DNA of 15,539 nt, from assembly GCA_964526915.1 (NCBI GenBank), contig CAZGMS010000082.1, positions 1 through 15,539 on the forward strand. The letters run 5' to 3'. Source of the DNA: an uncultured Nitrospirales bacterium. GTDB lineage: Bacteria; UBA10199; JADGCS01. The position numbers and the translations under genes are program-made. Positions 1 through 15,511 of this stretch are shown piece by piece; position 1 is the first letter of the stretch, and each line of letters opens with the position of its first letter. The notes below the pieces were generated by a model. It was not told where the DNA came from. It searched no databases and saw nothing but the letters and a program-made list of their open reading frames with translations.

Positions 1-412
1 CCACCATGTTGCCCTTTGTGGTGCCGGTGAACATGATGGCGTGGTCCTGTTCGACACTGCGGATGATCTTGTTCGTGAGGATCTGGCATTGGGCCCGATC
101 GTATTCGGTAAGCCCTGTTTCGCGTAGCACCGCTTTGCCGGCCTCCATGACTTCGCCCTGATCCGCGTGGTGCACCTGCATCATGCCAAAGTGACGTTCG
201 GTCACAAGGGACCCCAACCTGACCTTTGTTCCTTTGAGTGCCATGTCTGTGAAACGGTGAATTTCCATGGCGGGCGCGATTTCAATAAAGAGCGCCGCGT
301 CATATTCAGACGGGTCGTACACGCGATTGTCTTTGGCAATAAACTGCGCCAGTTGTGGTTGCAGGCTATCGAGAAAGATGAGGGTTCTGAGTTCAAATTT
401 GGGACTGCTCAT
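1..412 (-). CDS. BMC shell protein, N-terminal part (gene continues past the window start); probably a permuted tandem-BMC (EutL/PduB-like BMC-T)
   Basis: Minus-strand ORF starting at ATG 412-410 (MSSPKFELRTLIFLDSL...), preceded by AAGGAG 7 nt upstream. It is absent from the ORF track because it runs off the window. It contains two BMC-type motifs about 50 aa apart (DMALKGTKVRLGSL and MEAGKAVLRETG). It lies inside a BMC operon. Confidence 0.5.
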   Translation of the reverse strand, partial: MSSPKFELRTLIFLDSLQPQLAQFIAKDNRVYDPSEYDAALFIEIAPAMEIHRFTDMALKGTKVRLGSLVTERHFGMMQVHHADQGEVMEAGKAVLRETGLTEYDRAQCQILTNKIIRSVEQDHAIMFTGTTKGNMV

Positions 413-474: not shown

Positions 475-1377
475 TTAATAATTTCCTTTTCCTGTCTTGC
501 CTGTCACAATCGCCACCGAAGCCGAAGCGCCAATCCGGTTCGCACCGGCCTTGATCATGGCCTCGGCGTCTTCCTTGGTGCGCACGCCACCGGAGGCCTT
601 GACCTCCATGTCTTTGCCGACCACCCTGCGCATGAGGGCGATATCTTCCACCGTGGCACCGCCACCGGCAAAGCCAGTGGAGGTCTTGACAAAAGCCGCG
701 TGAGCCGCCTTGGACAGCGCGCACGCGATGATTTTTTCTTCATCGGTCAGCGATGAGGTCTCGATGATCACCTTGACTTTTTTGGGACGCGAGGCCTCCA
801 CCACTTTCAGAATGTCTTCGTAAACAAGTTGGTAATCGCGATCCTTGATGGCCCCGATGGCGATCACCATGTCGATTTCTTCGGCGCCATTGCGGATGGC
901 CTCTTTGGCCTCAAAAACCTTGGCCTGTGTGGAGGCGGCTCCCAACGGGAACCCTACTACGGCTATGGGCTTGACGGTTGATCCCTTGAGGAGTCTCGCG
1001 CAGAACGGGATGTTGCTGGAGTTCACACAGACGGTGGCAAAACCGTATTGTTTGGCTTCAACGCAGAGTTTGGTCAGCTCGTCCTTGGTGGCGTCTGGTT
1101 TGAGCAGGGTGTGATCAATCATGCCCGCGATCTTTTGATCAACGCCCTGTTTGATGCCCGTTGAGGACCCTACGCGCGCGGCACCGGTATCGACCAGATT
1201 GTTGATCGCGCCCGGTTTGTTGACCACACATTGTCCGCAATTATTGCAGGCAGAAGGGTCGCTAGAGCAAATGGGGGCGTTGGGGTTTCCCGGAGACAGT
1301 GTTTGGTTCAGCCTCTCCGTAACCTTTTTGGTGATGAGTTCAACCAGTTGTTCGATGTTGGTATTGTTGATTTCCAT
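475..1377 (-). CDS. deoC: Deoxyribose-phosphate aldolase (class I DeoC) with a ~75-aa N-terminal extension carrying a predicted encapsulation peptide
   Basis: Residues ~80-300 align along their length with short DeoC (IDHTLLKPDATK, FATVCVN, GFPLG, KVIIET, FVKTSTGF, KASGGVRT, RIGAS). The N-terminus IEQLVELITKKVTERL is an amphipathic helix typical of BMC encapsulation peptides, followed by a Pro/Cys-rich linker. RBS GGAG 7 nt upstream. Confidence 0.9.
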   Translation of the reverse strand: MEINNTNIEQLVELITKKVTERLNQTLSPGNPNAPICSSDPSACNNCGQCVVNKPGAINNLVDTGAARVGSSTGIKQGVDQKIAGMIDHTLLKPDATKDELTKLCVEAKQYGFATVCVNSSNIPFCARLLKGSTVKPIAVVGFPLGAASTQAKVFEAKEAIRNGAEEIDMVIAIGAIKDRDYQLVYEDILKVVEASRPKKVKVIIETSSLTDEEKIIACALSKAAHAAFVKTSTGFAGGGATVEDIALMRRVVGKDMEVKASGGVRTKEDAEAMIKAGANRIGASASVAIVTGKTGKGNY

Positions 1378-2099: not shown

Positions 2100-2657
2100 T
2101 TACCAATACACTCCCCTTGCCAACATCTCTGGATGCGGTGCCTCGATGATTTCGCACCCAGCCAACATACCCGTGTTTTTGACAAATTCCTTTGCCCGTT
2201 CCATTGAGGCCTGAACATCGCACAATGCGCCCGTGATCATAAAATACCCTTTGCCCCCCAGGCCGTTGGCCAGTCTGACTTCCACGAGTTTGCTGTCGGT
2301 CGCCTTGGCCGCGATATCGGCGGCTTCAACACAGGTTGCGATCGAAAATGTTTCAACAATCCCGAGCGCACCAAAATGATCAATCACATTTGTTCCTGTG
2401 ATGGCAGGGATGAGGTCTGGGTGTGCGTGTGGCAGGAACATGTGGCTTACGATCATGTCATGTCCGATCTCGATCCCTTTTTTTAGGGATTCCTCCACAT
2501 CGGCCACCTCACCGCAAATGAGCACCATGTATTTGCCCGGGCAGATGGCATGGGTTTCGAGAACGCGCACAGGCGCCTTCTTGACCATCTCATCGGTGGT
2601 CTTGAACCCTTTGGCGACAGATTTGAATTCGATCATGGCGAGTGCTGGTTCAATCAT
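2100..2657 (-). CDS. PduT-like tandem-BMC-domain shell protein (BMC-T) with a conserved Fe-S-ligand cysteine
   Basis: 185 aa with two BMC domains. The first carries ICPGKY, matching the PduT Cys38 4Fe-4S ligand motif. The second is canonical (ALGIVETFSIATCVEAADIAAKAT...GKGYFMITG). The size matches PduT (184 aa). Confidence 0.85.
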   Translation of the reverse strand: MIEPALAMIEFKSVAKGFKTTDEMVKKAPVRVLETHAICPGKYMVLICGEVADVEESLKKGIEIGHDMIVSHMFLPHAHPDLIPAITGTNVIDHFGALGIVETFSIATCVEAADIAAKATDSKLVEVRLANGLGGKGYFMITGALCDVQASMERAKEFVKNTGMLAGCEIIEAPHPEMLARGVYW

Positions 2658-2672
2658 AAAGTGTAAAGGCTC

Positions 2673-4016
2673 CTAGCGCTGAGCCTGAATTTCAATGGTC
2701 GTTTCCGAAACGGATTTCACCACACCAGAAATCGAGGCGTGGTAGTTGGTCCCCAAGGCCCCTGCTGGGCAGGGCGCAATCAAATCTCCCAAGCTGACAG
2801 TCTGACCCTGTTTGACAACAGGCAGGGATTTGGCTCCCACATGCCGGTGCAAGGGGACAATCACATCAAAAACATTTTGATAACCCAGATAAGGGGTTTC
2901 TTTTTTGTATTTCAGTAAATCCAGTTTTTTAAGAAGCACATCAATCGCCACCTTGCGGTCTTCATAGGCACTGTTGCAGGTGGTGGGCTTGCTGTTGTGC
3001 GGGTTTTTCACGCCTTTGGCAACGAGTTCCCTGCGGTAAGCGGCATAGATTTTTTTGGGGGAGAGACGCATGACATCGCACGCGACCATCTCGCACATCC
3101 CGCACTGACTGCACAAAAAGGCCGATGTGATGTTTTGCGTGGGTTCAGATAAATTGTAATCGATGGTGCGCATGGTGGCATGCGGGAAAATCGCGTGCCC
3201 CAACAGGTTGCGAGGGCAGAGGTCGGTACAGCGGAAACACTGACAACATGCCGCCTTGGAGAGTTTGATCATTTGCCCTACGCTGAGGGTCTTGGCGCGC
3301 ACTACAAAATGATCGCGTGGCAACACAAGCACACCACTGCAGGTTTTGGCGATGCCGAGAGAAAGGTCATCAACGATATTGCCCATCATGGGACCGCCAT
3401 CAATCACGACAGGGTTATCGGTAGTGATTCTGCCTGCCAGGGCGAGGAGTGTTGTGTAGGGGGTGCCGATGGGGACCTTGACGACGCAGGGTTTTTCGAC
3501 TTCACCGGTAATGGTTACCATTCTCTCGGTGACAGGCTTGCCATTGACGGCGTCGGTCATTTGGTAGAGAGAAAGGACGTTGCTCACGACCACGCCCACG
3601 TTGAGTGGCAGGCCACCTTCGGGGATGATCCGTTTTGTCGCATCATAAACAGTCAAGAACTCATCACCTGCGGGATAATAATTTTGAAGTTTGTGAATAT
3701 GAATATTTTGTTTGGGATCGAGTGCCTTGGTGAGCGCGTTCACCACATCGGTATAGTGCCCTTTGACAGCGATGATTCCCTGTTTGGCGCCGGTGGTCTT
3801 CATGGCCAGGGCAACACCTGTAACCACCTGATCCGCGTGTCTGATCATGAGGGTCTTGTCGGTGTTGAGCAGGGGCTCACATTCGGAACCATTGGCGAGC
3901 ACGGTGTCCACGCTGGCTTTGAGTTTGATGTGCGGGGGGAACCCGCCGCCACCGGCACCCACGATGCCTGCATTAAAGACGGAGTTGATGATATCGTTTG
4001 CTGTCAAATGGTTCAT
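2673..4016 (-). CDS. PduS-like RnfC-family Fe-S flavoprotein (BMC-associated oxidoreductase)
   Basis: Collinear with PduS throughout: GIVGAGGGGFPPHIKL, YPAGDEFLT, GGPMMG, two Cys clusters (CCQCFRCTDLCPRNLLGH and CSQCGMCEMVAC), and a C-terminal GALGTNYHASISGVV. The likely start at 4016 overlaps the AldDH stop by 1 nt (TGATG); the ORF track extends it to 4049. Confidence 0.9.
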   Translation of the reverse strand: MNHLTANDIINSVFNAGIVGAGGGGFPPHIKLKASVDTVLANGSECEPLLNTDKTLMIRHADQVVTGVALAMKTTGAKQGIIAVKGHYTDVVNALTKALDPKQNIHIHKLQNYYPAGDEFLTVYDATKRIIPEGGLPLNVGVVVSNVLSLYQMTDAVNGKPVTERMVTITGEVEKPCVVKVPIGTPYTTLLALAGRITTDNPVVIDGGPMMGNIVDDLSLGIAKTCSGVLVLPRDHFVVRAKTLSVGQMIKLSKAACCQCFRCTDLCPRNLLGHAIFPHATMRTIDYNLSEPTQNITSAFLCSQCGMCEMVACDVMRLSPKKIYAAYRRELVAKGVKNPHNSKPTTCNSAYEDRKVAIDVLLKKLDLLKYKKETPYLGYQNVFDVIVPLHRHVGAKSLPVVKQGQTVSLGDLIAPCPAGALGTNYHASISGVVKSVSETTIEIQAQR

Positions 4017-5470
4017 CAAATAATCCTGAAATACCCCGAGACCACGCACCGCCTGATTTTGGTAAAGTGGCGAGCGGTGGTCACGCCCTCACCTGTGGGT
4101 GAGGCGATCGTAAAGGACGCGGGCCCTTCGCCGTCCATGCCCAATCCGGACAGAGCCATCCCGTTTTTCACAAAAATGGAGGTGCCCATCTTCACGGCCA
4201 TGTTGTGCAGGTTTTCGATATTCTTGGAATGCATGGCCGAGGTGTGGAAGCGTCCCCCCTCGAGCTCGTACGCGCAGTCGATGGCTTGATTCACATTGCC
4301 CACGCGGATGAAAGGCACCACGGGCAGGAGCATTTCGATTTGCGCGAACGGGTGTTTGTGATCGGTTTCGGTGATGGCAAGCCTGATGGCGGGGTCCACA
4401 TCAATCCCAATTTGTTTCAAGATGTGCTGAACGTCTTTGCCCACGAAATCCTTGTTGGGGTGGTCACCGTCCACAATCACTTTTTCGAGTCGTTTGGCGT
4501 GATATGGTGTGAGTTCAAACGCGCCGCTTTTCAGCAGGGCTTTTTTAAACGGATCGGCGGCTTTTTCTGTCACAATGATTTCTTTTTCGATGGCGCAAAT
4601 GATGTTGTTGTCGCAACTCGATGAGGTGATGATGTCGCGGGCGGCTTTGTCGAGATCGGCCGTTTCGTCCACCACAACAGGCGGGTTGCCGGGACCTGCC
4701 GCGACCACACGTTTGCCTGTGCCCATGGCGGCCTTGACCACAGCGGGTCCGCCGGTCACCACCAGAAGTTTAATGTCCTTGTGATTCATGAGCTGGTTGG
4801 CCGAGGCAATGGTGGGGGTCGCGATGGTGGTGAATAAATTGGGGGGGCCGCCTTCACTGATGACGGCCTGGTTCATGAGGTCAATCACAAAGACCGAGAT
4901 TTTTTTGGCTGTGGGGTGCGGGTTGAAAACCACCGTGTTGCCTGCGGCGATCATGCCGATCCCGTTGCAGATGATGGTTTCTGTGGGGTTGGTGCAGGGA
5001 GTGATGGACCCGATCACACCCCAAGGGGCCTTTTCCAAAAGGGTAAACCCGTGATCACCTGTGAAGGTTTGTGGCTCGATGTCTTCAACGCCCGGTGTTT
5101 TGTTGATGGCCAACAGATTTTTTTTGATCTTGTCTTCGACTCTGCCCAGACCGGTTTCTTCACGGGCCATCTTTGAGAGCAGTTCCACATTGGCTTTGCA
5201 GAGGTCCCTGATTTTTTGGATGATGCGTTTGCGTTGTTCGAGTGAGATTTGTTTGAAATCGTCCAGAGCCTTGACGCTGGCCGCGATGGCGTCGTCGATC
5301 GAACCAAAACAGCCACGGGAACCAGTGAACGCGGCGTCTTTTTTGGGTTCCTGTTTGGAGACGGTCGCTGTTGTGTTCGCAGGACGTCCAGCAGGCGGCG
5401 TGTCTTTGACCTGAATTTGAGACACCACCTTATCGACAATGGAACTGATTTGTTCGTCGGAGAATTTCAT
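4016..5470 (-). CDS. CoA-acylating aldehyde dehydrogenase (PduP/EutE family) with N-terminal encapsulation peptide
   Basis: 484 aa. The N-terminus MKFSDEQISSIVDKVVSQI is an encapsulation-peptide helix followed by a linker. ALDH fold with catalytic Cys region SSSCDNNIICAIEKE and the PduP-like GPGNPP motif. Confidence 0.9.
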   Translation of the reverse strand: MKFSDEQISSIVDKVVSQIQVKDTPPAGRPANTTATVSKQEPKKDAAFTGSRGCFGSIDDAIAASVKALDDFKQISLEQRKRIIQKIRDLCKANVELLSKMAREETGLGRVEDKIKKNLLAINKTPGVEDIEPQTFTGDHGFTLLEKAPWGVIGSITPCTNPTETIICNGIGMIAAGNTVVFNPHPTAKKISVFVIDLMNQAVISEGGPPNLFTTIATPTIASANQLMNHKDIKLLVVTGGPAVVKAAMGTGKRVVAAGPGNPPVVVDETADLDKAARDIITSSSCDNNIICAIEKEIIVTEKAADPFKKALLKSGAFELTPYHAKRLEKVIVDGDHPNKDFVGKDVQHILKQIGIDVDPAIRLAITETDHKHPFAQIEMLLPVVPFIRVGNVNQAIDCAYELEGGRFHTSAMHSKNIENLHNMAVKMGTSIFVKNGMALSGLGMDGEGPASFTIASPTGEGVTTARHFTKIRRCVVSGYFRII

Positions 5471-5477
5471 AGGTCAG

Positions 5478-5682
5478 CGTGAATCGTGAATCGTGGATTG
5501 TGGATCGTAAAATGGTTTGTCATCCCAGCGGAAGCTGGGATCCAGAACTGTTGACAGTAGGGATTTCTGCTTTGGTTCGACTTTGCTCACCACCCTGAGC
5601 GCCTGTCGAAGGGTCGCAGGAATGACATACCTACTCAACAATTCGCATTTCGATCCACGATCGACGACCCACAACCCACGAT
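5478..5682. repeat. MITE-like element copy A: heptad-repeat terminal inverted repeats flanking hairpin 1 plus an expanded hairpin 2
   Basis: Left end (CGTGAAT)2-CGTGGAT-TGTGGAT-CGT, then AAAATGG + GTCATCCCAGCGGAAGCTGGGATCCAGAACTGTTGACAG ... CGCAGGAATGAC...CAACAATTCGCATTTCGA. Right end TCCACGA-TCGACGA-CCCACAA-CCCACGA. It fills the whole gap between the BMC-P stop (5684) and the AldDH start (5470). Confidence 0.75.
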
Positions 5683-5683
5683 A

Positions 5684-5977
5684 TTACGGATTCTTCACAT
5701 ACCTTTTGTCGCCATCGATTTCCAAAATATCGACAATGGCCATGATGACGGCATCGACCGGTTTGTTTTCGGTTGCTTGTGTCATTCTGGCCGAGGAGCC
5801 GCTGGCGACCAAGACAACTTCGCCAACACCCGCACCGACAGAATCCGCGGCCACCACAAAACTGCCAGTGGGTTTGCCATCGGTGTCGACATATTTGACC
5901 AGTTGCAACCTGAGGCCCTCAAGTTTTTCGTCCTTGCGGGTGGCCACAACGGTTCCTACAATTTTGCCTAGTTGCAT
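5684..5977 (-). CDS. BMC vertex protein BMC-P (EutN/PduN family), paralog 3
   Basis: True start [27 protein letters not shown] at 5977. The track ORF is artificially extended into the repeat. Canonical EutN/CcmL signature. Confidence 0.85.
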
Positions 5978-5984
5978 AAAACAG

Positions 5985-6187
5985 CGTGGTTCGTGGATCG
6001 TGGGTCGTGGATCGTGGATCGAAAAATGGCTTGTCATCCCAGCGAAAGCTGGGATCCAGAACTGTTGACAATAGTCATTCCTGCTTTCGCAGGAATGACT
6101 ATCCGCTCAACAATTCGCATTTTGACCCACTATTCACGACCCACTATCCACGATTCACGACTCACGATCCACGATCCACGACCCACG
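5985..6187. repeat. MITE-like element copy B (most complete copy): 5 heptads, hairpin 1, hairpin 2, 9 heptads
   Basis: CGTGGTT-CGTGGAT-CGTGGGT-CGTGGAT-CGTGGAT, then AAAAATGGCTTGTCATCCCAGCGAAAGCTGGGATCCAGAACTGTTGACAATAGTCATTCCTGCTTTCGCAGGAATGACTATCCGCTCAACAATTCGCATTTTGA, then nine copies of NYCACGA. It sits between the BMC-H stop (6193) and the BMC-P start (5977). Confidence 0.8.
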
Positions 6188-6192
6188 AAAAA

Positions 6193-6489
6193 TTACTTTG
6201 CCACTTTTTTGACATTGCGACCCAAAGGCAAAGCCACATCGATATTCTCGTGTGGTCTGGGGATGACGTGAACGGAAACGAGTTCGCCAACCTTTTCGGC
6301 TGTTCTGGCGCCGGCTTCGGTCGCGGCTTTCACGGCGGCCACATCACCTCTGACAATCGCGGTCACAAAACCACCACCAATTTTTTCGTAACCAACAAGT
6401 TCAACCTTGGCGGCTTTCACCATGGCGTCACTGGCCTCGACCATTGCGACAAAACCTTTGGTTTCGATCATTCCTAATGCGTCTGCCAT
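6193..6489 (-). CDS. BMC hexamer shell protein BMC-H (PduA/EutM/CcmK family)
   Basis: True start [60 protein letters not shown] at 6489 with AAGGAG RBS. The track ORF is over-extended upstream. First gene of the operon. Confidence 0.95.
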
Positions 6490-6600
6490 ATCAATCTCCT
6501 TTATTAACGATTTAGAGGCCCCCTTATTACTATTACAATAGGGAACCAAGTTTGGTCGGCATAGACTTTTTTTTTGGGGACTGTCAATAGTTAATGATAT
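6490..6600 (-). promoter_or_regulatory. Candidate sigma70-type promoter and structured leader of the BMC operon
   Basis: On the minus strand: TTGACA (plus 6583-6588), an 18-nt spacer, TATGCC (plus 6558-6563), and a ~60-nt leader containing a CCCT...AGGG inverted repeat with a TATTAC direct repeat just before the RBS. It lies in an AT-rich, >400-bp non-coding region. Confidence 0.3.
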
Positions 6601-6717
6601 TATCGTTAAAGAAAACCACATTCAAAATCATTTTATAATAACACGAGATATTTAGTGATATATGATGCTATTTAATGGTTGATGATTAGTGCCAATTGTG
6701 ATAATCAGTTTCTAGAT

Positions 6718-6912
6718 TGCGGATTGTGGCTCGTCATTGAGAGGGTGAACTGCGTTGGAATTGCCAAAAGGCAATTTTAATACTGTGCCCCAAGGGATAC
6801 CGGGGTAATCCAGAAATGATACTGTGGATTGCTTCGATTCGCTTTGTGAATCTCGCAATGACCAGCTGTTTGTACTTTTAGACGATTCACGAACATCGAT
6901 CCACGATCCACT
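6718..6912. repeat. Degenerate copy (E) of the heptad-TIR element
   Basis: Left end GCGGATTGTGGCTCGT matches copy A CGTGGATTGTGGATCGT at about 14 of 17 positions. The internal CCCCAAGGGATACCGGGGTAATCCAGAAATGA is homologous to hairpin 1 + ATCCAGAACTGTTGA. Right end CGATTCACGAACATCGATCCACGATCCAC. Confidence 0.4.
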
Positions 6913-6918
6913 CTTCTC

Positions 6919-7104
6919 ATGCAATATTCCGAAGTCATGACAACCAACGAGGCCATGAAGTACCTCAAAATCACCCGCAAGACCCTGCTCAAATTGGTCA
7001 AAACGGGTGAGCTCAAGGGCGCCAAGGTGGGCAAGGATTATCGCTACCTCAAAAGCGAGATCGACAAGTTTCTCAAAGGGGAAAAAGAGGAACGGCTGTT
7101 TTGA
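6919..7104 (+). CDS. Excisionase-family helix-turn-helix DNA-binding protein (alternative start at 6937)
   Basis: MTTNEAMKYLKITRKTLLKLVKTGELKGAKVGKDYRYLKSEIDKFL is the excisionase/MerR-type HTH pattern. It begins right after a heptad TIR, and its stop TGA lies in a GAATCGT heptad remnant. No clear RBS. Confidence 0.6.
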   Translation: MQYSEVMTTNEAMKYLKITRKTLLKLVKTGELKGAKVGKDYRYLKSEIDKFLKGEKEERLF

Positions 7105-7113
7105 ATCGTATCT

Positions 7114-7179
7114 TGTCATCCCTGCGAAGGCAGGGATCCAGTTTCTGTCATCCCTGCGTGGTCCCTGCCTTCGCAGGGA
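7114..7179. repeat. Hairpin 1 (GTCATCCCTGCGAAGGCAGGGATCCAG) followed by a second fused hairpin (GTCATCCCTGCG-TGGT-CCCTGCCTTCGCAGGG)
   Basis: Same hairpin 1 as the MITE core but with compensatory changes in the stem (CAGC/GCTG becomes CTGC/GCAG). It sits immediately upstream of the GIY-YIG gene. Confidence 0.6.
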
Positions 7180-7199
7180 GGGAACCAGAGCATAGATTT

Positions 7200-7487
7200 A
7201 TGAAGACATACTATGTGTATATTCTTGCCAGCAAAAAAAATGGCACATTGTATGTCGGTGTTACGAGCAATTTGTCCAAAAGAATATTTGAGCACAAACA
7301 AGACCTGGTGGATGGGTTCACAAAAAAATATGGGGTTCATTCTTTGGTTTATATTGAACAAACAAATGATGTGAACGACGCATTGCTTAGAGAAAGAAGA
7401 TTGAAGGCTTGGAAGAGGCAATGGAAAATAGATCTGATTGAAAAATCGAACCCGAATTGGAACGATTTGTATGAAGATTTGTTTTAG
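7200..7487 (+). CDS. Small GIY-YIG nuclease family protein (~95 aa, COG2827-like)
   Basis: True start MKTYYVYILASKKNGTLYVGVTSNLSKRIFEHKQ (GIY...YVG motif with downstream R and E). The track ORF is over-extended upstream through the hairpins. Confidence 0.85.
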   Translation: MKTYYVYILASKKNGTLYVGVTSNLSKRIFEHKQDLVDGFTKKYGVHSLVYIEQTNDVNDALLRERRLKAWKRQWKIDLIEKSNPNWNDLYEDLF

Positions 7488-7494
7488 GAAACAT

Positions 7495-7520
7495 GGATTC
7501 CTGCTTTCGCAGGAATGACA
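7495..7520. repeat. Hairpin 2 (GGATTCCTGCTTTCGCAGGAATGACA), the MITE core second hairpin, immediately downstream of the GIY-YIG gene
   Basis: Near-identical to GTCATTCCTGCTTTCGCAGGAATGAC in copy B. The following GCTATAAATTCGG resembles the MITE GCTCAACAATTCGCA. Confidence 0.6.
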
Positions 7521-7537
7521 AAGCTTTGAGCTTTGAG

Positions 7538-7768
7538 CTATAAATTCGGACACGTCCCGCCACTACAACAACTCCCTGCCTCTGAACACGATTTGGCAGA
7601 GGGACAGGTGGCGTTTGATTTCGAGATCATCCTGCTTGGCACACTGATGAGTTTTTCCAAATCAAGGGACTCGCATTTTGGACAGGCGATGGTATTCTGA
7701 CGCGTCGTGGAGACAATCAATTCAAAAACAGCGTCACATTTTTTGCATTTGTATTCGAATAAGGGCAT
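7538..7768 (-). CDS. FmdB-family zinc-ribbon protein
   Basis: True start MPLFEYKCKKCDAVFELIV...IACPKCES (CxxC...CPxC FmdB pattern) with a Cys/Gly/Ser-rich tail. The track ORF is extended through the upstream tandem repeat. Confidence 0.75.
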   Translation of the reverse strand: MPLFEYKCKKCDAVFELIVSTTRQNTIACPKCESLDLEKLISVPSRMISKSNATCPSAKSCSEAGSCCSGGTCPNL

Positions 7769-7779
7769 GCGTCCCAATA

Positions 7780-7813
7780 CAATTGGCAATGGGCAATTGG
7801 CAATGGGCAATTG
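7780..7813. repeat. Tandem 14-mer CAATTGGCAATGGG x2.4, i.e. three palindromic CAATTG hexamers at 14-bp spacing
   Basis: Seen directly. It lies between the stop of the 889-aa gene (7837) and the start of the FmdB gene (7768). Confidence 0.7.
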
Positions 7814-7836
7814 TATGGAGCAACATCAGGGCGTTG

Positions 7837-10506
7837 TTATGCGGCTGTTCTGGGGAGCCTGTTCTCGTCCATGATTCTTTGATGGGCCAGTCTTTGCAGG
7901 TATGTTCGGATGATGGGATATTTCTCCATCATGTCCTTCAGATCGGCCTCGCTAAAACGAAGGACGGTGACATGGCCTTGCGCACTGACATTTGCCTTGC
8001 GTGCCTGATGGTTGATGGAGGCCATTTCGCCGACTACCGTTCCGGGACCAACTGTGATTCTACGGTCATGGGGCGCATATGACCAGATCTCCGCTAGGCC
8101 ATCCACAATCAGAAAGGCGTCTTTGTTGGTGTGATCGCCCTCGGCGATAAATCGATTGCCCGCGAACATGGTTTCTTCGCTGGCAATCATGAGCAAGGCG
8201 GTGAGGATGGCGTCCGAAATATCAGGCAGGGCCTGTTTGAGCAGGCGATAGTATTTTTTTCGGAGTTCTCTAACGTGTCGCAGCGTCTCAGTGTGCTGAC
8301 CAAGTACCTCGGTCAGCGTTTTGGCAGAAAAAGTCAAAACCTGTGAGGGCATGGAGGCCACAGCACTGGCGTTACGAGGTTCACCAAAGAGTGCTCCCTC
8401 ACCGATGATCCCAAAGGGCACATGGGTGAGTTCCGAACCGTCAGCGTAAAGTCTGAATCCGCCCGAGACAATCATTCTGACAGAGGTGTCTGTTGCGTCG
8501 CTTCCTGCTGTTGCCTCATCTTGAAGCATCAACACCGCTCCTATGTCAAACGTGGCGAGTGTGGTGGCCGCGGCCAAAGCCTGCTTTTGCTCGGTGGACA
8601 GGCCCGCCAAAAGGGGTGACCATTCAATGAAGCGCAAATTTCTCTCTTGTATGCTGTCTTCTGTTTCGGGCTGTTTGGGAAAATGATTGGCCAGCGAAAT
8701 AAATCCCTGATGACCCGCCAATAGTTTGGGGACACCCACCTGGGCCGCTCTGCCGTCACTCACGTGATAGAATTTGACCCGATTCAACACCTCATGCAGT
8801 TCGACTCCTTTTTTTTCTGCAAAAGTCTTGAGCCACGCCAGGGTGACTTCGGGATCGGTATGCAGACCCTTCATGCCAGCCTCAATCAAAATCATGGGAG
8901 GGTTGGGCTGATCCCAGGTGCTTTCCAAAAGATGTTGGTAACGCAGAATTTCGGCCTTGCGTGCCGGGTGCATATCAGGAAACAGCCGATCCAGTTCGGC
9001 AGAATCAGCCAAAGTATCTCCACTGATGTAGAGCGCGAGTTGGCCCCCTGTGTCCGCAGGCGCTGTCCAGACTTCAATGGCCTCGGCGGCCACAGAATGA
9101 CAGGTGTAGTGGGTTCTGAGCCACATGCCCCGGACCGCAACGAACTGTCGAGGTTTGAGTTCCACAAAATTCAATTGAGTCAAACCCTCGGGTTTGCCAT
9201 TAACGGCGATGCTTAGGGTGTATGCATCCTGACAAATATTGTACAAGGTTTTTGTTCCGTACCAATTGAGTTTTGGGCACAGGAACATGAGTTCTATACT
9301 GGCAGGAGTGAAATGATCGGTGTGATCATGTGTGATGGCGATGCCCTCCACCGCGTTCAAGGGAATCCCGTTTTGTATGAGATAAGCAACCGTCTGTGCC
9401 GGGGGGTCGATCAGCGTAACCTTGCCATCCTTCCAAAGCATGAACCCGCTGGTGCCCTCGCCCGAAAAATAATCCGCTGTGCTGATGGGCCAAAGACCTG
9501 CTTCGCCGTCTATCAAGACCCGTTTGCGGATTTCCTGAAACTTGGGATCGAACATGGTTCTGGGATCAACATCGAGATTTTCCACGGGCGGGGCGAATTC
9601 CGGTTTGCCCAGATCGATAGTGCGTAGCAAATGCCCGCGATCATAAATTTCGTACGCCATGGGTCCTTTTTCCTGAGCCTGTTTGACGACAACGCTACCA
9701 TCCCCGATCGTGATTTCGTCGTTCTCAAAATGGGTGACTCTGGAAAAGTCCTCGGATGCCTTGTTGGCGAAACGCTGTGTTTCAGTGCCCAAATCGGGAA
9801 TGCCCTCTTCATTGGAAGCATGTTCGTCTCGTACACTGTCGGTCAGTTTTTGTGGGTTGCGTCCCTGAAAGGCCTCTTTCAAAAAGGCACTGACTTTCCC
9901 TGCGTCACCCGGGGTTGGCAAATAAAAATTAAACCCAGCTTGTTGCAAGAGCGGCCAAAAGTAGGGATAACGGGTAAAGTCTACCGCGTGATAACCCGTT
10001 GTAAATGTCGTGTAACCTTTGACAGGCACATAGTGCAGGGGCATGTAATGACCGAGTTTATCAGAGGGTGTTTTGCCGGGTTGTCCGCCGTTTTTAAAGA
10101 ACATCTGAATGGCATCGAGGTGCGATCCCATGGGGAGCCCCAACTGTACCCAACCTTGAGACGTGTAAACGGCAACGCCACCGCGCCTCATTTTTTGCAC
10201 ATAACCGTATGGTTTGCCAATGGGGCCTGTGTTATCGGAACCGCCTGTTCCACCCGGGCGATCAGTGGATTGTGGGGCGTCCGAGCTTGGTGTTGCAGGT
10301 GCGGCAAGCCTTTGCGCTGCAGGTTTTCTTGTTTGCCTTCCCGTCAAATGTGCAGTTTGGGCCGTTGCACCAGCAAAGGCGGCATAACGACTCGCCAAGC
10401 TTTGTGTTGCCTTACCGCGAGTTGGATTGCCTGTGGAAAGGATGAAAACGTTTGGTGCGACGGGTTGTGCGAGTGGGGCTCTTAAGGCGGTGGTTGCTGT
10501 GTTCAT
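7837..10506 (-). CDS. Large multidomain protein: disordered Ala/Thr/Pro-rich N-terminus, an unknown domain, a metallo-beta-lactamase-fold hydrolase domain, and two C-terminal cyclic-nucleotide-binding (CAP-like) domains
   Basis: 889-aa ORF with GGAGG RBS 5 nt upstream of ATG 10506. MBL motifs ITHDHTDHF (HxHxDH), later THYTCHS, YISGDT and FYHVSDG. The cNMP-binding signatures FGIIGEGALFGEPRNASAVA and VGPGTVVGEMASINHQARKANVSA are each followed by coiled-coil-like helices. Confidence 0.8.
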   Translation of the reverse strand: MNTATTALRAPLAQPVAPNVFILSTGNPTRGKATQSLASRYAAFAGATAQTAHLTGRQTRKPAAQRLAAPATPSSDAPQSTDRPGGTGGSDNTGPIGKPYGYVQKMRRGGVAVYTSQGWVQLGLPMGSHLDAIQMFFKNGGQPGKTPSDKLGHYMPLHYVPVKGYTTFTTGYHAVDFTRYPYFWPLLQQAGFNFYLPTPGDAGKVSAFLKEAFQGRNPQKLTDSVRDEHASNEEGIPDLGTETQRFANKASEDFSRVTHFENDEITIGDGSVVVKQAQEKGPMAYEIYDRGHLLRTIDLGKPEFAPPVENLDVDPRTMFDPKFQEIRKRVLIDGEAGLWPISTADYFSGEGTSGFMLWKDGKVTLIDPPAQTVAYLIQNGIPLNAVEGIAITHDHTDHFTPASIELMFLCPKLNWYGTKTLYNICQDAYTLSIAVNGKPEGLTQLNFVELKPRQFVAVRGMWLRTHYTCHSVAAEAIEVWTAPADTGGQLALYISGDTLADSAELDRLFPDMHPARKAEILRYQHLLESTWDQPNPPMILIEAGMKGLHTDPEVTLAWLKTFAEKKGVELHEVLNRVKFYHVSDGRAAQVGVPKLLAGHQGFISLANHFPKQPETEDSIQERNLRFIEWSPLLAGLSTEQKQALAAATTLATFDIGAVLMLQDEATAGSDATDTSVRMIVSGGFRLYADGSELTHVPFGIIGEGALFGEPRNASAVASMPSQVLTFSAKTLTEVLGQHTETLRHVRELRKKYYRLLKQALPDISDAILTALLMIASEETMFAGNRFIAEGDHTNKDAFLIVDGLAEIWSYAPHDRRITVGPGTVVGEMASINHQARKANVSAQGHVTVLRFSEADLKDMMEKYPIIRTYLQRLAHQRIMDENRLPRTAA

Positions 10507-10790
10507 GCTGTCCTCCCCATTTTATGTGATGATACCAGCCGCATAGTGCTTTTGGTGTCTGGTGTCAAAATTTTCTTGTAGACAGGGGGCATGCGTCAGG
10601 AAATGGTGTCATGTCATCACGAGTAGGTCGCCGCAGGCGGACGACGTGGTGATCTCCATATTGTTTCTTGTGGATCGCCACGCTTCGCCATGAGCCTGTA
10701 AATGGCTCATGGCTCCGCTCGCGATGACGGTGACTTATCACTAATTCATTTTCATTGAACAAGGCCAGGTTTTCTGTTTTATGGCTGGGC

Positions 10791-12086
10791 ATGGATGTCC
10801 TTTTTTTGTCCCGCCTGCAATTTGCCGTGGCCACCCTGTTTCATTTTATCTTTGTCCCACTGACTTTGGGCCTCTCGATCATTGTGGCGATTTTCGAAAC
10901 ACGCTATGCCAGAACTGGTGACGAGCTTTATCTCAAGCTCACCAAATTCTGGGGCAAACTTTTTCTCATCAATTTTGCCTTGGGGGTGGTGACGGGAATC
11001 ACACTGGAGTTTCAGTTTGGGACCAACTGGTCCCGTTATTCGGCCTTTGTGGGCGATATCTTTGGATCACTGTTGGCCATCGAGGCCACGGTCGCGTTTT
11101 TTTTGGAATCCACACTCGTGGGGGTGTGGATTTTTGGCTGGCAAAAACTCTCGCCCAAAAAGCACGCGCTCATCATGTGGCTCATTGCTGTGGCGGGCAC
11201 GCTCTCGGCGGTGTGGATCATTCTGGCCAATGGGTGGATGCAGAATCCAGTGGGTTACGTGATCAAAAATGGACGGGCAGAGCTGGCAAGTTTTAGTGCC
11301 GTGTTTTTTAACAAGTACGCGTGGCTGGAGTTTTTTCACACCATGAGTGCGTCGTATTTATACAGCGCCTTTTTTGTGATGGGAGTGAGCGCGTATCATC
11401 TCATTAAAAAACAACATGTCGATTTTTTCACACGTTCTTTCAAATTGGCCCTCTGGTTTGGTCTGGTGTGTTCGGTTTTGGTGGCCTTTAGCGGTGACCT
11501 GAACGGCGTGAACGTGGCCAAAGTCCAACCTGCCAAACTCGCCGCCATGGAATCACACTGGCAAACGAGCGCCAACGCGCCCATGAAGCTTCTGGTTTGG
11601 CCCGATGAAGAGGCCGGTAAAAATGCATTTGAAGCCTTTTCGGTGCCGTCGGGATTGAGTTTGCTGGCGTTTCACGATCCTCATGCCACAGTGAAAGGGT
11701 TGCGCGATTTTGCCCAGGAGGATCGTCCACCTGTGCTCATCACCTTTGTGGCGTTCAGGGTCATGGTGGCCATTGGGGGCTTGCTGATTCTGCTTTGCGT
11801 GATCGGGGTTTTCAAACGCAACCGCCTGACCGGGTCCAAATGGTATTTGAGGGCCATGTTGTTTACCTTGCCTCTGCCTCTTGTGGCGATTGAACTCGGC
11901 TGGGTGGTGACTGAGGTGGGGCGGCAACCCTGGATTGTGTATGGGCTGATGCGCACGAGCGATGCGGTCTCGCCGGTCGTGACCTCGCAGGTGTTGACCT
12001 CGCTCATTTTCTTTTTTCTGGTTTATGGACTCTTGGGCGCTGTGGGGGTGTTGTTGATGGCAAGACACGTGAATCGTGGTTCGTGA
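10791..12086 (+). CDS. cydA: Cytochrome bd-type quinol oxidase subunit I (CydA), short Q-loop type
   Basis: MDVLFLSRLQFAVATLFHFIFVPLTLGLS...KFWGKLFLINFALGVVTGITLEFQFGTNWS...GRQPW aligns with E. coli CydA. At ~431 aa it lacks the long Q-loop insertion. The track ORF begins at an upstream in-frame TTG; ATG 10791 matches the family N-terminus. The last 5 codons and the stop lie inside the MITE. Confidence 0.93.
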   Translation: MDVLFLSRLQFAVATLFHFIFVPLTLGLSIIVAIFETRYARTGDELYLKLTKFWGKLFLINFALGVVTGITLEFQFGTNWSRYSAFVGDIFGSLLAIEATVAFFLESTLVGVWIFGWQKLSPKKHALIMWLIAVAGTLSAVWIILANGWMQNPVGYVIKNGRAELASFSAVFFNKYAWLEFFHTMSASYLYSAFFVMGVSAYHLIKKQHVDFFTRSFKLALWFGLVCSVLVAFSGDLNGVNVAKVQPAKLAAMESHWQTSANAPMKLLVWPDEEAGKNAFEAFSVPSGLSLLAFHDPHATVKGLRDFAQEDRPPVLITFVAFRVMVAIGGLLILLCVIGVFKRNRLTGSKWYLRAMLFTLPLPLVAIELGWVVTEVGRQPWIVYGLMRTSDAVSPVVTSQVLTSLIFFFLVYGLLGAVGVLLMARHVNRGS

Positions 12087-12217
12087 ATCGTTGTTCGTGG
12101 GGTGCTCTGTCATTCCAGCCTGTCAGCCATAGGACTGATCCCGCTCTGCGTGCGCTGGGATGACAAAACACATTTCGATTCACGATTCACGATCCACGAT
12201 CCACGATCTGCGAGAAT
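12068..12217. repeat. MITE-like element copy C between cydA and cydB (heptad TIRs plus a variant long hairpin)
   Basis: CGTGAAT-CGTGGTT-CGTGAAT-CGTTGTT-CGTGGGG, then GTCATTCCAGC-(34 nt)-GCTGGGATGAC, then AAAACACATTTCGA + TTCACGA-TTCACGA-TCCACGA-TCCACGA-TCTGCGA. Confidence 0.7.
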
Positions 12218-12219
12218 TT

Positions 12220-13248
12220 ATGTTTTTACAATCAATCTGGTTTTTTATTTGGGGGCTTTTATGGGCCATCTTTTTTGCGACCGATGGTTTTGATTTTGGC
12301 GTGGGCACGCTCTACCCTTTTTTGGGCAAGACAGAGCATGACAAGCGCGTGATGATCAATGCCATTGGGCCTTTGTGGGATGGCAATGAGGTGTGGCTCA
12401 TCACCGCAGGTGGGGTGACGTTTGCAGCCTTTCCTCAGGTTTACGCCGTGATGTTCTCAACGCTGTACACCCCTCTCATGATCATCTTGTTTGCGCTCAT
12501 CCTGCGCGGTGTGGCGTTTGAGTTCAGGGGCAAAGTGGATTGTCCCCGGTGGCTCAAAATTTGGGACGCAGCAATTTTTATTGGGAGTGTTTTGCCCGCT
12601 TTGTTATTTGGTGTGGCGTTTGGCAATATTTTTATGGGCATTCCGTTTGATGCTCAGGGCCTGAATCATGGCGGGTTACTCGATCTGATCAACCCGTATG
12701 GTTTACTCACGGGCTTGTTGTTTTTGCTGTTGTTCATCCAGCATGGGGCCTTGTGGCTGGCGGTGCGGTCAGGCTCTGCCCTGCATGACCGGGTCGTCAC
12801 TGTTGTGCGCACCAACTGGTTTGTTTTGCTGATAGTGGCGGTTTTGTTTTTTGTGGCCACGTATTTTGTTACGGATTTGTACGACAATTATATTGCACAG
12901 CCAGTTTTGTGGGTTATTCCTGGCCTGGTAGTTCTTTCGTTATTTGGTGTGCGTTTATTTTTGCGGCAAAAAAAATATTTATGGGCGTGGGTCGCTTCGG
13001 CGGTCACAATTGTGGGGGCCACATTTTTTGGCATCACGGGGCTTTTTCCCCGACTTTTTCCATCAAGCATAGACTCTCAATTTGATCTGACGGCGTTCAA
13101 TGCCTCGTCATCGCAGGACACACTTACCATTATGCTGGTGGTGGTGGCTGTCTTTATCCCCATAGTGATTGCATACCAAGTCTGGGCGTACCGGCTTTTT
13201 TCGCATAAAATTGACCACGACAATTTTGAGCGGGTTGTGGTGTATTGA
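12220..13248 (+). CDS. cydB: Cytochrome bd-type quinol oxidase subunit II (CydB)
   Basis: True start MFLQSIWFFIWGLLWAIFFATDGFDFGVG (DGFDxGVG CydB signature). Polytopic membrane protein. The track ORF is over-extended upstream through the repeat. Confidence 0.9.
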   Translation: MFLQSIWFFIWGLLWAIFFATDGFDFGVGTLYPFLGKTEHDKRVMINAIGPLWDGNEVWLITAGGVTFAAFPQVYAVMFSTLYTPLMIILFALILRGVAFEFRGKVDCPRWLKIWDAAIFIGSVLPALLFGVAFGNIFMGIPFDAQGLNHGGLLDLINPYGLLTGLLFLLLFIQHGALWLAVRSGSALHDRVVTVVRTNWFVLLIVAVLFFVATYFVTDLYDNYIAQPVLWVIPGLVVLSLFGVRLFLRQKKYLWAWVASAVTIVGATFFGITGLFPRLFPSSIDSQFDLTAFNASSSQDTLTIMLVVVAVFIPIVIAYQVWAYRLFSHKIDHDNFERVVVY

Positions 13249-13287: not shown

Positions 13288-14622
13288 TCAAATCAGCTTG
13301 TCCCAACAACCAATTGCGTAGAGAGGAATGTGGTAGAGGGTGTAACCGTTGCGTTGCACAATCGAATAGGGGGCCAATGAAACGATCACAGCCTTGGCAT
13401 TATTGAAACGGCTATGATAAATGTCCAGAGCCTTGTATTGGTGTGTGTTGGGCTTGAGGGCCGCTTTGCATTCTAGTGGAATGATTTCGAAGGGCGTTTT
13501 GACCACAAAATCGATTTCAAAATTTTTATCCTTAAACCCGCAAACGTTGGGATGGTCGTCTAGCAGTTCGCTACACAGCATTTGTTCAATCAATCCGCCC
13601 AAAGGCTCTCGCAAGTTGGCATCCAGCGTTTCCAATGCCGAAATTCTCGGCAAGCCGGTTTCTCGCAGATGTTTTGCCAGCCCCACATCAAACAAAAATC
13701 GTTTGGGATAAAAGCTGTGTGTGCTTTCTGGATGGTGTGTTTTTTGTTCAATCTTGTGAATGAGCCTCCAGCCTTCAAGGACAGATAAAATGTTATCGGC
13801 AAGGCGGTTGTTATTTTTGATCAGGGCTGTTTTTTTATAAGAGCCACCCAGTGTGTTGGCCACACTGTTGATGGCGCGGTAGAACAAATTGGCATATTCT
13901 TCAGAAAAGAATTTCAAAAAATCTTCTTTGATGGATTCGAGGTAAGCAGAAAAATCTTGTGTGAGATTGCTGTTGCCGGCTGTGGTCAGATAATTGGTGC
14001 AGATTTGCGGTAGGCCGCCGCAAAGAAGATATTGATCGAGCAAGATGAGGAGTGTGGTGTGGTCGTTGGCAGAAAGCCCGATGAGGTTATTTGGATTGTT
14101 TATGATTTCTTGTAATCCATATTTGGTGTGAGGATTTTTTATCTGTTCGTTTGCACGTATAAACTCTGCGTAGGAAAAGGGGTGCACGGTCATTTGAGTG
14201 TAGCGACCAACAGGAATGCGAATTTCCGGATTTCTGAAAAGGCGGTTCATCATGGATCCACTGAGAATGACTGTTTGATGTGGCCAGTCTTCCTTCATTT
14301 GCCGCACGTAGCGCCCCAATAGATATGATTCGTTGGCTTCATCTATGAAAAGAACGGTGTCTTGCGAAGCGACAAAGTTGGTTTCTCTTTTGAGGACCTG
14401 TTCAAATTCATTAAATGATGCCGTCTTGTCGATTTGAGCGCAAAGAATTTTGTTGGTCTCGAGGTTGATTTCTATGTATGTTTTTTTTGATCGTTCCAAT
14501 GCCAAACGAACAGCCGTTGTCTTGCCTACTTGTCGTACACCATTGATGATAAGAACATTTTTATTTAATTCATCCAATGATATATAATTATTGATGTTAT
14601 TTGACAGGTCTCTGAAAATCAT
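13288..14622 (-). CDS. AAA+ superfamily ATPase with C-terminal DUF4143-like domain (COG1373 family)
   Basis: Walker A GVRQVGKTT near the N-terminus, Walker B-like VLFIDEAN, and a C-terminal FEIDFVVKTPFEIIPLECKA nuclease-like (PD-ExK-type) segment. The gene is markedly AT-rich compared with its neighbours. Confidence 0.8.
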   Translation of the reverse strand: MIFRDLSNNINNYISLDELNKNVLIINGVRQVGKTTAVRLALERSKKTYIEINLETNKILCAQIDKTASFNEFEQVLKRETNFVASQDTVLFIDEANESYLLGRYVRQMKEDWPHQTVILSGSMMNRLFRNPEIRIPVGRYTQMTVHPFSYAEFIRANEQIKNPHTKYGLQEIINNPNNLIGLSANDHTTLLILLDQYLLCGGLPQICTNYLTTAGNSNLTQDFSAYLESIKEDFLKFFSEEYANLFYRAINSVANTLGGSYKKTALIKNNNRLADNILSVLEGWRLIHKIEQKTHHPESTHSFYPKRFLFDVGLAKHLRETGLPRISALETLDANLREPLGGLIEQMLCSELLDDHPNVCGFKDKNFEIDFVVKTPFEIIPLECKAALKPNTHQYKALDIYHSRFNNAKAVIVSLAPYSIVQRNGYTLYHIPLYAIGCWDKLI

Positions 14623-14830: not shown

Positions 14831-15085
14831 CCTAACCCATTATAATCACACAAAATATTATTTTATGGTATTGGCACAGGGATTGCAGTCCGTAAGACGA
14901 GTACGTGCCCATTTTGTTACAGTACTGGCGTGTTTACGAGGGGAATAAAACAGGCATGAAAACTGGCGGGGCAACTCACAAAAAGAGCGTGGCTTGTGGC
15001 TTAGCGGTTATTGCACCGCGTCAACAAATATTATGCGAATGAACAAGCAGTCTTGTTTTCTATGATTTATGCGACTAGGGAGAAG

Positions 15086-15141
15086 CGTGGATCGTGAATC
15101 GTGAATCGCGGATCGTGAATCGTGGATCGTGGATCGTGGGG
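15086..15141. repeat. Heptad-repeat inverted repeat, left arm (8 x CGTGGAT/CGTGAAT) flanking the four-helix-bundle gene
   Basis: CGTGGAT-CGTGAAT-CGTGAAT-CGCGGAT-CGTGAAT-CGTGGAT-CGTGGAT-CGTGGGG, read directly. Confidence 0.75.
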
Positions 15142-15148
15142 AAGTGAG

Positions 15149-15511
15149 ATGAAAATTCAATCGTATAAAGATTTGGAAGTTTGGAAGACAGGGCTCGAGA
15201 TTGTAAAACTTGTTTACAGTGTGACCAAAAAATTCTCAAAGAGTGAGTCGTTTGGCCTGACGTCCCAAACGCAGAGAGCGGCAGTATCAATACCAACAAA
15301 TATTGCCGAAGGATTTGCGCGACGATACACAAAAGAGTTTACTCGATTTTGCTATATCGCGTTGGGTTCATGTTCAGAATTAGAAACTTTGGTGATCATT
15401 GCGAAGGAACAAACACATTTAACGGGAGATGATTTTAAGAAGTTGACAGAATTGTTGGATCACGAAAGTCGAATGTTAATGAGCCTAACCAAAAAACTGG
15501 TTAACCATTGA
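15149..15511 (+). CDS. Four-helix-bundle protein of the 23S rRNA intervening-sequence family (TIGR02436-like)
   Basis: MKIQSYKDLEVWKTGLEIVKLVY...QRAAVSIPTNIAEGFARRYTKEF...ALGSCSELETL matches the conserved pattern of IVS-encoded four-helix-bundle proteins. Confidence 0.8.
   Translation: MKIQSYKDLEVWKTGLEIVKLVYSVTKKFSKSESFGLTSQTQRAAVSIPTNIAEGFARRYTKEFTRFCYIALGSCSELETLVIIAKEQTHLTGDDFKKLTELLDHESRMLMSLTKKLVNH

Follow-up and report, generated by a model that had tools for sequence, protein, structure and literature searches.

We analyzed a 15,539-nt stretch of DNA from an uncultured Nitrospirales bacterium (contig CAZGMS010000082.1 of assembly GCA_964526915.1; hereafter the window), with a focus on two genes that resemble pduS and pduT of the Pdu system. 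A single, compact bacterial microcompartment (BMC) operon lies on the minus strand of the window and is cut by the left edge. Its genes encode, in order, a hexamer shell protein (BMC-H), a pentamer protein (BMC-P), a CoA-acylating aldehyde dehydrogenase (AldDH), the PduS-like protein, the PduT-like protein, two further BMC-P, deoxyribose-phosphate aldolase (DERA, or DeoC) and a double-stacking shell protein, BMC-T(dp) (Table 1). The segment 2100-4016, to which an earlier note on this DNA had drawn attention, was found to be exactly the PduS-like and PduT-like genes, which adjoin each other on the minus strand. That note also described the compartment as aldolase-type, and both DeoC and AldDH are indeed present with scores far above the model cutoffs. 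Judged by its genes, the locus is confirmed as a deoxyribose-phosphate, DERA-type metabolosome operon of the sugar-phosphate-utilization (SPU) type without a B12-dependent enzyme. The protein pair has been renamed metabolosome NADH dehydrogenase (MNdh) and BMC-T(SE) by Sutter 2024 in PNAS (PMC11626177), and we use these names below.

Table 1 Features of the BMC operon (in gene order, each gene followed by its motifs) and of the rest of the window. aa, amino acids.
Feature	Positions	Strand	Evidence or remark
BMC-H shell hexamer, 98 aa, encoded by the first operon gene	6193-6489	-	PF00936 7.8e-30; EutM-like 132.8 bits
BMC-P pentamer protein 1, 97 aa	5684-5977	-	PF03319 6.3e-31
CoA-acylating AldDH, 484 aa, N-terminal extension	4016-5470	-	PF00171 5.8e-37; NF011927 631 bits, cutoff 403
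TGATG stop/start overlap, AldDH/PduS-like	4014-4018	-	Direct reading: TGA 4018-4016, ATG 4016-4014
PduS-family flavo-Fe-S protein (MNdh), 447 aa	2673-4016	-	Pfam, Salmonella PduS alignment
Glycine-rich FMN/NADH loop of MNdh, GIVGAGGGGFPPHIK	3924-3968	-	Aligned with RnfC GIVGMGGATFPTHVKL
NGSECEP motif of MNdh	3873-3893	-	Aligned with RnfC NAAECEP
First 4Fe-4S motif, C257-x2-C260-x2-C263-x3-C267 (CCQCFRCTDLC)	3216-3248	-	Aligns with Salmonella PduS CEQCRLCTDLC
Second 4Fe-4S motif, C302-x2-C305-x2-C308-x4-C313 (CSQCGMCEMVAC)	3078-3113	-	Aligns with Salmonella PduS CSECNVCESVAC
PduT-family tandem-domain shell trimer protein, BMC-T(SE), 185 aa	2100-2657	-	Two PF00936 domains, 9.2e-37
CPGK pore motif of BMC-T(SE)	2532-2543	-	Cys39 aligned with Cys38 of PduT TICPGKF
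BMC-P pentamer protein 2, 116 aa	1647-1997	-	PF03319 2.4e-23
BMC-P pentamer protein 3, 89 aa	1381-1650	-	PF03319 2e-24
DERA/DeoC, signature enzyme, 300 aa	475-1377	-	TIGR00126 265.5 bits, cutoff 117.3
Cys-rich motif in DERA extension, C37-x6-C44-x2-C47-G-x-C50 (CSSDPSACNNCGQC)	1228-1269	-	
BMC-T(dp), double-stacking, CsoS1D/CcmP-like, 5' part only (window edge)	1-412	-	137-aa translation from MSSPKFELRT
GIY-YIG protein	7101-7487	+	Pfam
Zn-ribbon (FmdB-like) protein	7538-7810	-	Pfam
889-aa protein, two C-terminal cyclic-nucleotide-binding domains	7837-10506	-	Weak sub-threshold beta-lactamase-fold match
Cytochrome bd oxidase subunit I	10755-12086	+	Pfam; about 4 kb from BMC operon
Cytochrome bd oxidase subunit II	12160-13248	+	Pfam; about 4 kb from BMC operon
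AAA_14/DUF4143 ATPase	13288-14622	-	Pfam
23S-rRNA-IVP four-helix-bundle protein	15122-15511	+	Pfam
Heptanucleotide repeats	5478-5508, 5985-6021, 6127-6188, 12068-12099, 12176-12208, 15082-15139, 15515-15539		

The PduS-like protein was found to contain the Pfam domains Complex1_51K (PF01512, 3.8e-40), SLBB (PF10531), the 4Fe-4S dicluster domain Fer4_17 and, at its C terminus, RnfC_N (PF13375). This is the set of four domains by which MNdh is defined, with a circular permutation relative to RnfC (PMC11626177). The alignment of our protein with solved RnfC was split into two pieces, residues 4-317 matching RnfC 118-418 and residues 370-441 matching RnfC 18-88, and it is thus circularly permuted in the same sense. 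Against Salmonella PduS it aligned end to end, with 40.6% identity over 441 aligned residues. There was no PduS-specific model among its NCBIfam matches, the best of which was an rnfC subfamily model (235.9 bits, cutoff 245.95). RnfC of the Rnf NADH:ferredoxin oxidoreductase (7ZC6, 9ERI, 8AHX) is the closest solved protein in both sequence (E 2.4e-56) and fold: the AlphaFold2 (AF2) model of MNdh (pLDDT 87.1, pTM 0.89) best matched chain 9eri_C from the A. woodii Rnf complex (TM 0.66, root-mean-square deviation 2.6 Å), and NuoF-type flavoprotein subunits came next. The two proteins share an NADH/flavin mononucleotide (FMN) site and two 4Fe-4S clusters. However, the barrel-sandwich domain is N-terminal in RnfC and C-terminal in MNdh, and RnfC docks on a membrane complex, whereas MNdh would partner with a shell tile. 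The window also differs from the Rnf system in lacking other rnf genes.

We then aligned 45 homologs of 57-70% identity, both with Salmonella PduS included and without it, to examine the cofactor motifs. The residues G17, G20, G22, G23, G25, F26, P27 and K31 of the glycine-rich loop and N42, E45, C46, E47 and P48 of the NGSECEP motif were invariant in 45-46 homologs. All eight Fe-S cysteines were likewise invariant in the 45 homologs. The two PduS cysteine clusters are therefore intact, as the earlier note had it.

The PduT-like protein matched the solved structures of PduT (3PAC and 3N79) from end to end and is 35.9% identical to Salmonella PduT. As expected of BMC-T(SE), whose tile motif is defined as CP(G/S)K (PMC11626177), it is a single-layer protein with two PF00936 domains in tandem, a length of 185 aa and a pore cysteine in register with PduT Cys38. 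C39, P40, G41 and K42 were invariant in 8 aligned sequences comprising the relatives and Salmonella PduT. The cysteine of the ICPGK sequence, proposed earlier as a ligand, is thus present, and Cys39 is presumed to be the ligand of a central 4Fe-4S cluster. The E-values of the two Pfam assignments (3.8e-40 and 9.2e-37), the end-to-end alignments with Salmonella PduS and PduT and the cysteines in register indicate that the gene identities do not arise by chance. The earlier wording "clear orthologs" is overstated for proteins 41% and 36% identical to Salmonella PduS and PduT. The tile scored 116.2 bits against the PduT equivalog model TIGR02526 (eut_PduT), under the cutoff of 250.3, and is therefore better called a member of the family.

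The genes are closely packed. The stop codon of the AldDH gene and the start codon of the MNdh gene overlap by 1 nt, read directly from the sequence, which bears out the TGATG overlap described before. A gap of 15 nt separates the MNdh gene from the tile gene downstream, and an AGGAG there overlaps the MNdh stop codon. To place these junctions in a wider context, we used two sets of loci. The first comprised six contigs with PduS-like proteins 58-70% identical to that of the window, with Pfam-annotated flanks of ±10 kb. The second came from a one-genome-per-species scan that yielded 80 loci, of which the 42 with an MNdh at least 50% identical to that of the window (631 kb) are referred to as the clade. 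The order AldDH, MNdh, T(SE) was kept in 6/6 annotated relatives. By heuristic start calls, the AldDH and MNdh genes overlapped in 10 of 33 clade loci and were separated by no more than 30 nt in another 13, so that the spacing was tight in 23 of 33. In 29 of the 33, no more than 40 nt lay between MNdh and T(SE). The placement expected of MNdh, with a CPGK tile next to it and AldDH directly upstream, is thus found here and kept in relatives. In more distant SPU loci of the Atribacteria type (L065-L087), the MNdh is 41-44% identical and the AldDH gene lies about 3.4 kb downstream of MNdh rather than directly upstream; PduL, a phosphotransacylase (PTAC), is present, and T(dp) and the class II aldolase are absent. 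Once these loci are considered, only the adjacency of MNdh and T(SE) is universal. In Myxococcales metagenome-assembled genomes (MAGs; L059-L064), an MNdh of about 45% identity was found with a T(SE) tile, and no other BMC genes were detected in the fetched flanks. In this they are similar to the satellite modules of MNdh/T(SE) to which PMC11626177 refers.

We next searched for B12-dependent functions. The window was scanned with Pfam in all open reading frames (ORFs) of at least 85 aa not shadowed by a called gene, and with tblastn using Salmonella PduC/D/E/G/H/O/L/Q and Escherichia coli EutA/B/C/T/D/G and BtuR as references. No B12-dependent enzyme or adenosyltransferase was found in the 15.5-kb window by either method, and tblastn gave no match to a PTAC or an alcohol dehydrogenase (AlcDH) there. 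The six relatives, with their flanks, also had no B12-dependent enzyme or adenosyltransferase. All six contain the same eleven-gene operon, which ends with BMC-T(dp), a class II aldolase and triosephosphate isomerase (TIM), and the genes on either side of it are unrelated and variable. In the 42 clade loci, tblastn found no B12-dependent enzyme, reactivase, adenosyltransferase, PTAC or AlcDH, while a class II aldolase was found in 30 and TIM in 21. As positive controls, the same searches did pick up EutBC (in L055 and L088) and PduL (in twelve loci of the Atribacteria type). The full-locus check that had been proposed thus agrees with a B12-independent pathway in the window, the six relatives and the clade. 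The content past the left edge of the window was read from the relatives. Since these continue with the rest of BMC-T(dp), the class II aldolase and TIM and then with unrelated genes, nothing B12-related is expected just beyond the window, where the earlier note had seen the possible counter-evidence.

These results bear on whether the PduS-like protein could be a genuine cobalamin reductase. The B12-dependent enzyme that it serves would then be encoded at another place in the genome, perhaps in a satellite EutBC/EutL module that plugs into the shell. The protein is a full-length homolog, at the identity given above, of the Salmonella "cobalamin reductase PduS", and cob(III)alamin/cob(II)alamin reductase activity has been reported for Salmonella and Citrobacter PduS in work cited by PMC4207490. 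Satellite EUT modules have been reported for the HO, SPU3 and SPU6 types (PMC8217296), and in one locus discussed below (L055) EutBC stands beside the same shell genes and MNdh/T(SE). However, neither the window nor the 631 kb of clade loci encodes a B12 enzyme or adenosyltransferase, the pair stays in the operon beside AldDH whatever the signature enzyme, and the MNdh model matches the RnfC/NuoF fold along its whole length. As argued in PMC11626177, a corrin site would have little space, and cobalamin is not needed for NADH oxidation. L055 itself has no adenosyltransferase match. A PduS of the Pdu system in the strict sense would share its locus with PduCDE, a reactivase and an adenosyltransferase (PduGH/PduO), which this locus lacks. 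We therefore consider a cobalamin reductase highly improbable. The comparison with Salmonella enterica is one of homologous parts in different surroundings: PduS and PduT align end to end with our pair, with the Cys clusters and Cys38/Cys39 aligned and the genes adjacent in the same order, whereas the Pdu operon encodes the B12-dependent PduCDE, the reactivase PduGH, the adenosyltransferase PduO, PduQ (AlcDH) and PduL (PTAC), none of which has a homolog here. In Pdu, pduS follows pduQ, whereas here the PduS-like gene follows that of AldDH, a protein 43% identical to Salmonella PduP.

Locus L055 (positions 4821-12560), from a Bdellovibrionales MAG, has the same chassis of BMC-H, BMC-P, AldDH, MNdh, T(SE) and T(dp). 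EutB and EutC, with another protein of 240 aa that has a BMC domain, replace DERA, two BMC-P, the aldolase and TIM, and an amino-acid permease follows. Identity to the operon of the window is 83% for BMC-H, 58% for AldDH and 77% for T(dp), and tblastn found no adenosyltransferase in the locus. L055 is a swap of the signature enzyme on an SPU5-like shell. That MNdh/T(SE) is kept where DERA has given way to EutBC fits a housekeeping role of the relay, independent of the signature enzyme.

Among the SPU subtypes, SPU5 is the best fit to the gene content. This assignment was made from the gene-content criteria in the text of PMC8217296 and PMC11585597. The operon encodes a DERA (PF01791) with an N-terminal extension together with AldDH, three PF03319 genes where at least three BMC-P are expected, one BMC-T(s) and a CsoS1D-type BMC-T(dp). 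Pfam found neither ribose-5-phosphate isomerase (RPI, PF02502) nor PTAC (PF06130) in the window ORFs or the six annotated relatives, which also fits SPU5, as does the presence of a PduS homolog (criteria in PMC11585597). The SPU5 loci described before (Sutter 2021, PMC8217296; Commun Biol 2024, PMC11585597) are accordingly alike in their extended DERA, extended AldDH, PduS homolog, BMC-T(s), CsoS1D-like BMC-T(dp) and BMC-P triplet and in having no RPI or PTAC. SPU5 loci are further expected to encode a class II aldolase with a C-terminal encapsulation peptide. A class II aldolase and TIM lie downstream in the relatives of the window, which itself ends before both genes.

Taken together, we propose that the gene pair is the NAD+-regenerating module of an SPU, most likely SPU5, metabolosome, and we give this a probability of about 0.8. 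Inside the shell, DERA would cleave deoxyribose 5-phosphate into glyceraldehyde 3-phosphate and acetaldehyde, and the CoA-acylating AldDH, the proposed producer of NADH within the shell, would convert acetaldehyde to acetyl-CoA. Large cofactors would cross the shell poorly, and the NADH would arise within it. As the operon has no AlcDH, MNdh is proposed to oxidize this NADH. Docked on the lumenal face of the BMC-T(SE) trimer, it would do so at its FMN, and the electrons would travel by way of its two 4Fe-4S clusters to a third, held by three Cys39 in the tile pore, and leave from there to an acceptor in the cytoplasm (ferredoxin, flavodoxin or O2, for example). This locus contributes the gene identities, the architecture, the cofactor motifs, the RnfC/NuoF-like fold, the conserved adjacency and the absence of a B12 enzyme, PTAC and AlcDH. 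That the two proteins form a complex, that electrons flow outward and that NAD+ is regenerated is inferred from the literature on the homologous pair.

The proposed role of the pair in redox or NADH balancing across the shell is the same as the published MNdh/BMC-T(SE) model (PMC11626177), which supports the suggestion made in the earlier note. Its remark that direct evidence is scarce is outdated. For the homologous pair of Clostridium botulinum, the purified complex carried FMN together with Fe-S clusters and oxidized NADH rapidly in assays, electron paramagnetic resonance (EPR) and voltammetry supported the path from NADH through FMN to Fe-S, and X-ray footprinting mapped the MNdh/BMC-T(SE) interface (PMC11626177). 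The two pairs are alike: each MNdh has the four Pfam domains, permuted so that RnfC_N is C-terminal, with an FMN/NADH site and two 4Fe-4S motifs, each is followed directly downstream by the gene of a CP(G/S)K tile, and each co-occurs with AldDH in a B12-free metabolosome without AlcDH. They differ in BMC type (a Clostridium locus there, SPU here) and in phylum. In the same study, the two genes were adjacent in 97% of 2,172 loci, CP(G/S)K was universal beside MNdh, 361 loci had the pair without AlcDH, and SPU was named among the B12-free types (PMC11626177). Axen 2014 had flagged PduS in SPU loci that need no cobalamin as a puzzle, and had proposed electron transfer across the shell by PduS/PduT for GRM1 (PMC4207490). 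A PduS homolog has since been described in all SPU subtypes but SPU6, where present possibly recycling NAD+ (PMC11585597), and a 2025 preprint applied the relay model to archaeal SPU-type compartments (PMC12747264). Like the operon here, those compartments, from Hodarchaeales, have DERA and AldDH, and their MNdh and CPGK tile have been proposed to carry the electrons of lumenal NADH out of the shell. Their operons differ in having PTAC, two BMC-H, no T(dp) and a DERA-flavoprotein fusion.

Several points weigh against the proposed NAD+-regenerating role. No candidate external electron acceptor is encoded in the operon, MNdh is only about 40% identical to characterized PduS, and the lack of a PTAC in the operon leaves CoA recycling unexplained. 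It is also possible that a B12-dependent satellite module is encoded elsewhere in the genome, as EUT satellites have been reported for some SPU/HO types (PMC8217296). Both the arrangement and the electron-export role were already published between 2014 and 2024, which makes this an ordinary case: a further clean example of the SPU5 type, with an operon that encodes no NAD+-recycling device other than MNdh/T(SE). The state of knowledge is unchanged by it. The general point of the model is that a protein-bounded organelle would recycle NAD+ without cofactor exchange by wiring electrons through a shell tile, and the clade could be a convenient minimal system for it because the operon has neither AlcDH nor PTAC.

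The main role of MNdh/T(SE) could instead be to scavenge oxygen by burning NADH on O2, thereby shielding oxygen-sensitive contents, which would be compatible with NAD+ recycling. The C. botulinum complex can use O2 as an acceptor in vitro (PMC11626177), and the BMC operon has a cytochrome bd oxidase operon as a neighbour, a few kb away, in both the window and its closest relative. However, this neighbourhood was found in just 1/42 clade loci, namely the closest relative (70% identity; L003/L004/L013), and in no other clade locus. We therefore rejected a functional link between the BMC operon and cytochrome bd, as the arrangement looks like lineage synteny. In addition, neither DERA nor AldDH stands out as oxygen-labile beside glycyl-radical enzymes, and without an AlcDH the obvious need is to recycle NAD+. 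Of the explanations considered, we regard oxygen scavenging as the main role as the least probable.

We also analyzed the N-terminal extension of DERA. The TIGR00126 match spans residues 83-291, leaving 82 aa ahead of it, and in the AF2 model this extension contains a helix resembling an encapsulation peptide (residues 5-26) followed by the Cys4 motif. In 56 homologs, C44, C47, G48 and C50 of the motif were invariant and C37 was at least 90% conserved. Matches to Fer4 models were sub-threshold (E 7e-4 to 3e-3, 18-20 bits with cutoffs of 21-25). The aldolase barrel was modeled confidently, while the Cys-rich extension had a pLDDT of about 50-60 and was uninformative on the clustering of the four cysteines. 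An N-terminal extension is present on all SPU DERAs and has been pictured as a helix with two low-confidence strands (PMC11585597). This 2024 SPU paper makes no mention of cysteines in the extension, and the motif may be new as an observation. The extension might be more than an encapsulation peptide: from its sequence, the Cys4 motif could bind an Fe-S cluster or another metal and make DERA a redox- or metal-bearing partner of the MNdh/BMC-T(SE) relay, although we regard this as doubtful. If true, it would parallel the flavoprotein domain fused to Hodarchaeales DERA, in place of which DERA here has the short Cys4 motif.

The motif raises the question of whether the relay could run inward, from a cytoplasmic donor through the tile cluster to a lumenal partner such as a metal or Fe-S site on the DERA extension, or to the repair of oxidized cofactors. 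The ferredoxin-like Cys4 motif conserved in the 56 homologs would suit such a role. The fusion of hodarchaeal SPU DERAs to a flavoprotein domain suggests that redox modules on DERA recur (PMC12747264), and Axen 2014 weighed either direction for the GRM1 pair (PMC4207490). However, DERA chemistry needs no redox cofactor, and the AF2 model offers no guidance at the extension. The published EPR and voltammetry favour the outward path from NADH through FMN to Fe-S (PMC11626177). Six clade loci (L022, L028, L043, L048, L052 and L056) lack the Cys motif and keep MNdh/T(SE), and the Atribacteria-type loci have MNdh and no motif, which indicates that the DERA motif is not required for the relay. An inward relay is thus very unlikely, and outward export of electrons from lumenal NADH remains the favoured role of the pair.

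The remaining genes of the operon encode shell proteins. The BMC-H start was chosen with AAGGAG ahead of it, and BMC-H is 80-92% identical in related loci. In the first BMC-P, the PF03319 match starts at residue 21 of the mechanical ORF, and the part of the ORF before it is heptamer-repeat DNA. The start of the third BMC-P gene overlaps the stop of the second by 4 nt. The only NCBIfam match of the BMC-T(dp) fragment was the CcmP model (114 bits, under its cutoff), and its clade assignment therefore rests on relatives: the fragment shares 87% identity with the L003 protein, which is full-length (217 aa) and has PF27545 (CsoS1D_N).

Tandem heptanucleotide repeats (unit CGTGGAT/CGTGAAT or the complement) occupy many intergenic spacers of the window, among them some of the BMC operon and the one that separates cydA from cydB, and generate spurious N-terminal ORF extensions. 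An exact search with the 447-aa PduS-like protein gave no contig, and records of the PduT-like protein were limited to contigs of 3.3-3.4 kb. The 3.3-kb contig ACD_62C00094 from an uncultured bacterium carries the PduS-like, PduT-like and partial DERA genes of the locus at 100% identity. A second short metagenomic contig (L001, 1739-3425) has identical PduT-like and BMC-P genes, after which the sequence diverges, with a 166-aa product at the expected place of DERA followed by genes on the opposite strand. It is either a strain variant or an assembly chimera.

Upstream of the operon lies the gene for the 889-aa protein, with the zinc-ribbon and GIY-YIG genes in between. We considered this gene, with its weak metallo-beta-lactamase-fold match and its cyclic-nucleotide-binding domains, as a dedicated regulator and rejected it because each relative has other genes upstream (GGDEF/EAL, HTH_17 and others). 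The AAA_14/DUF4143 and 23S_rRNA_IVP genes were found to adjoin the operon in several relatives too.

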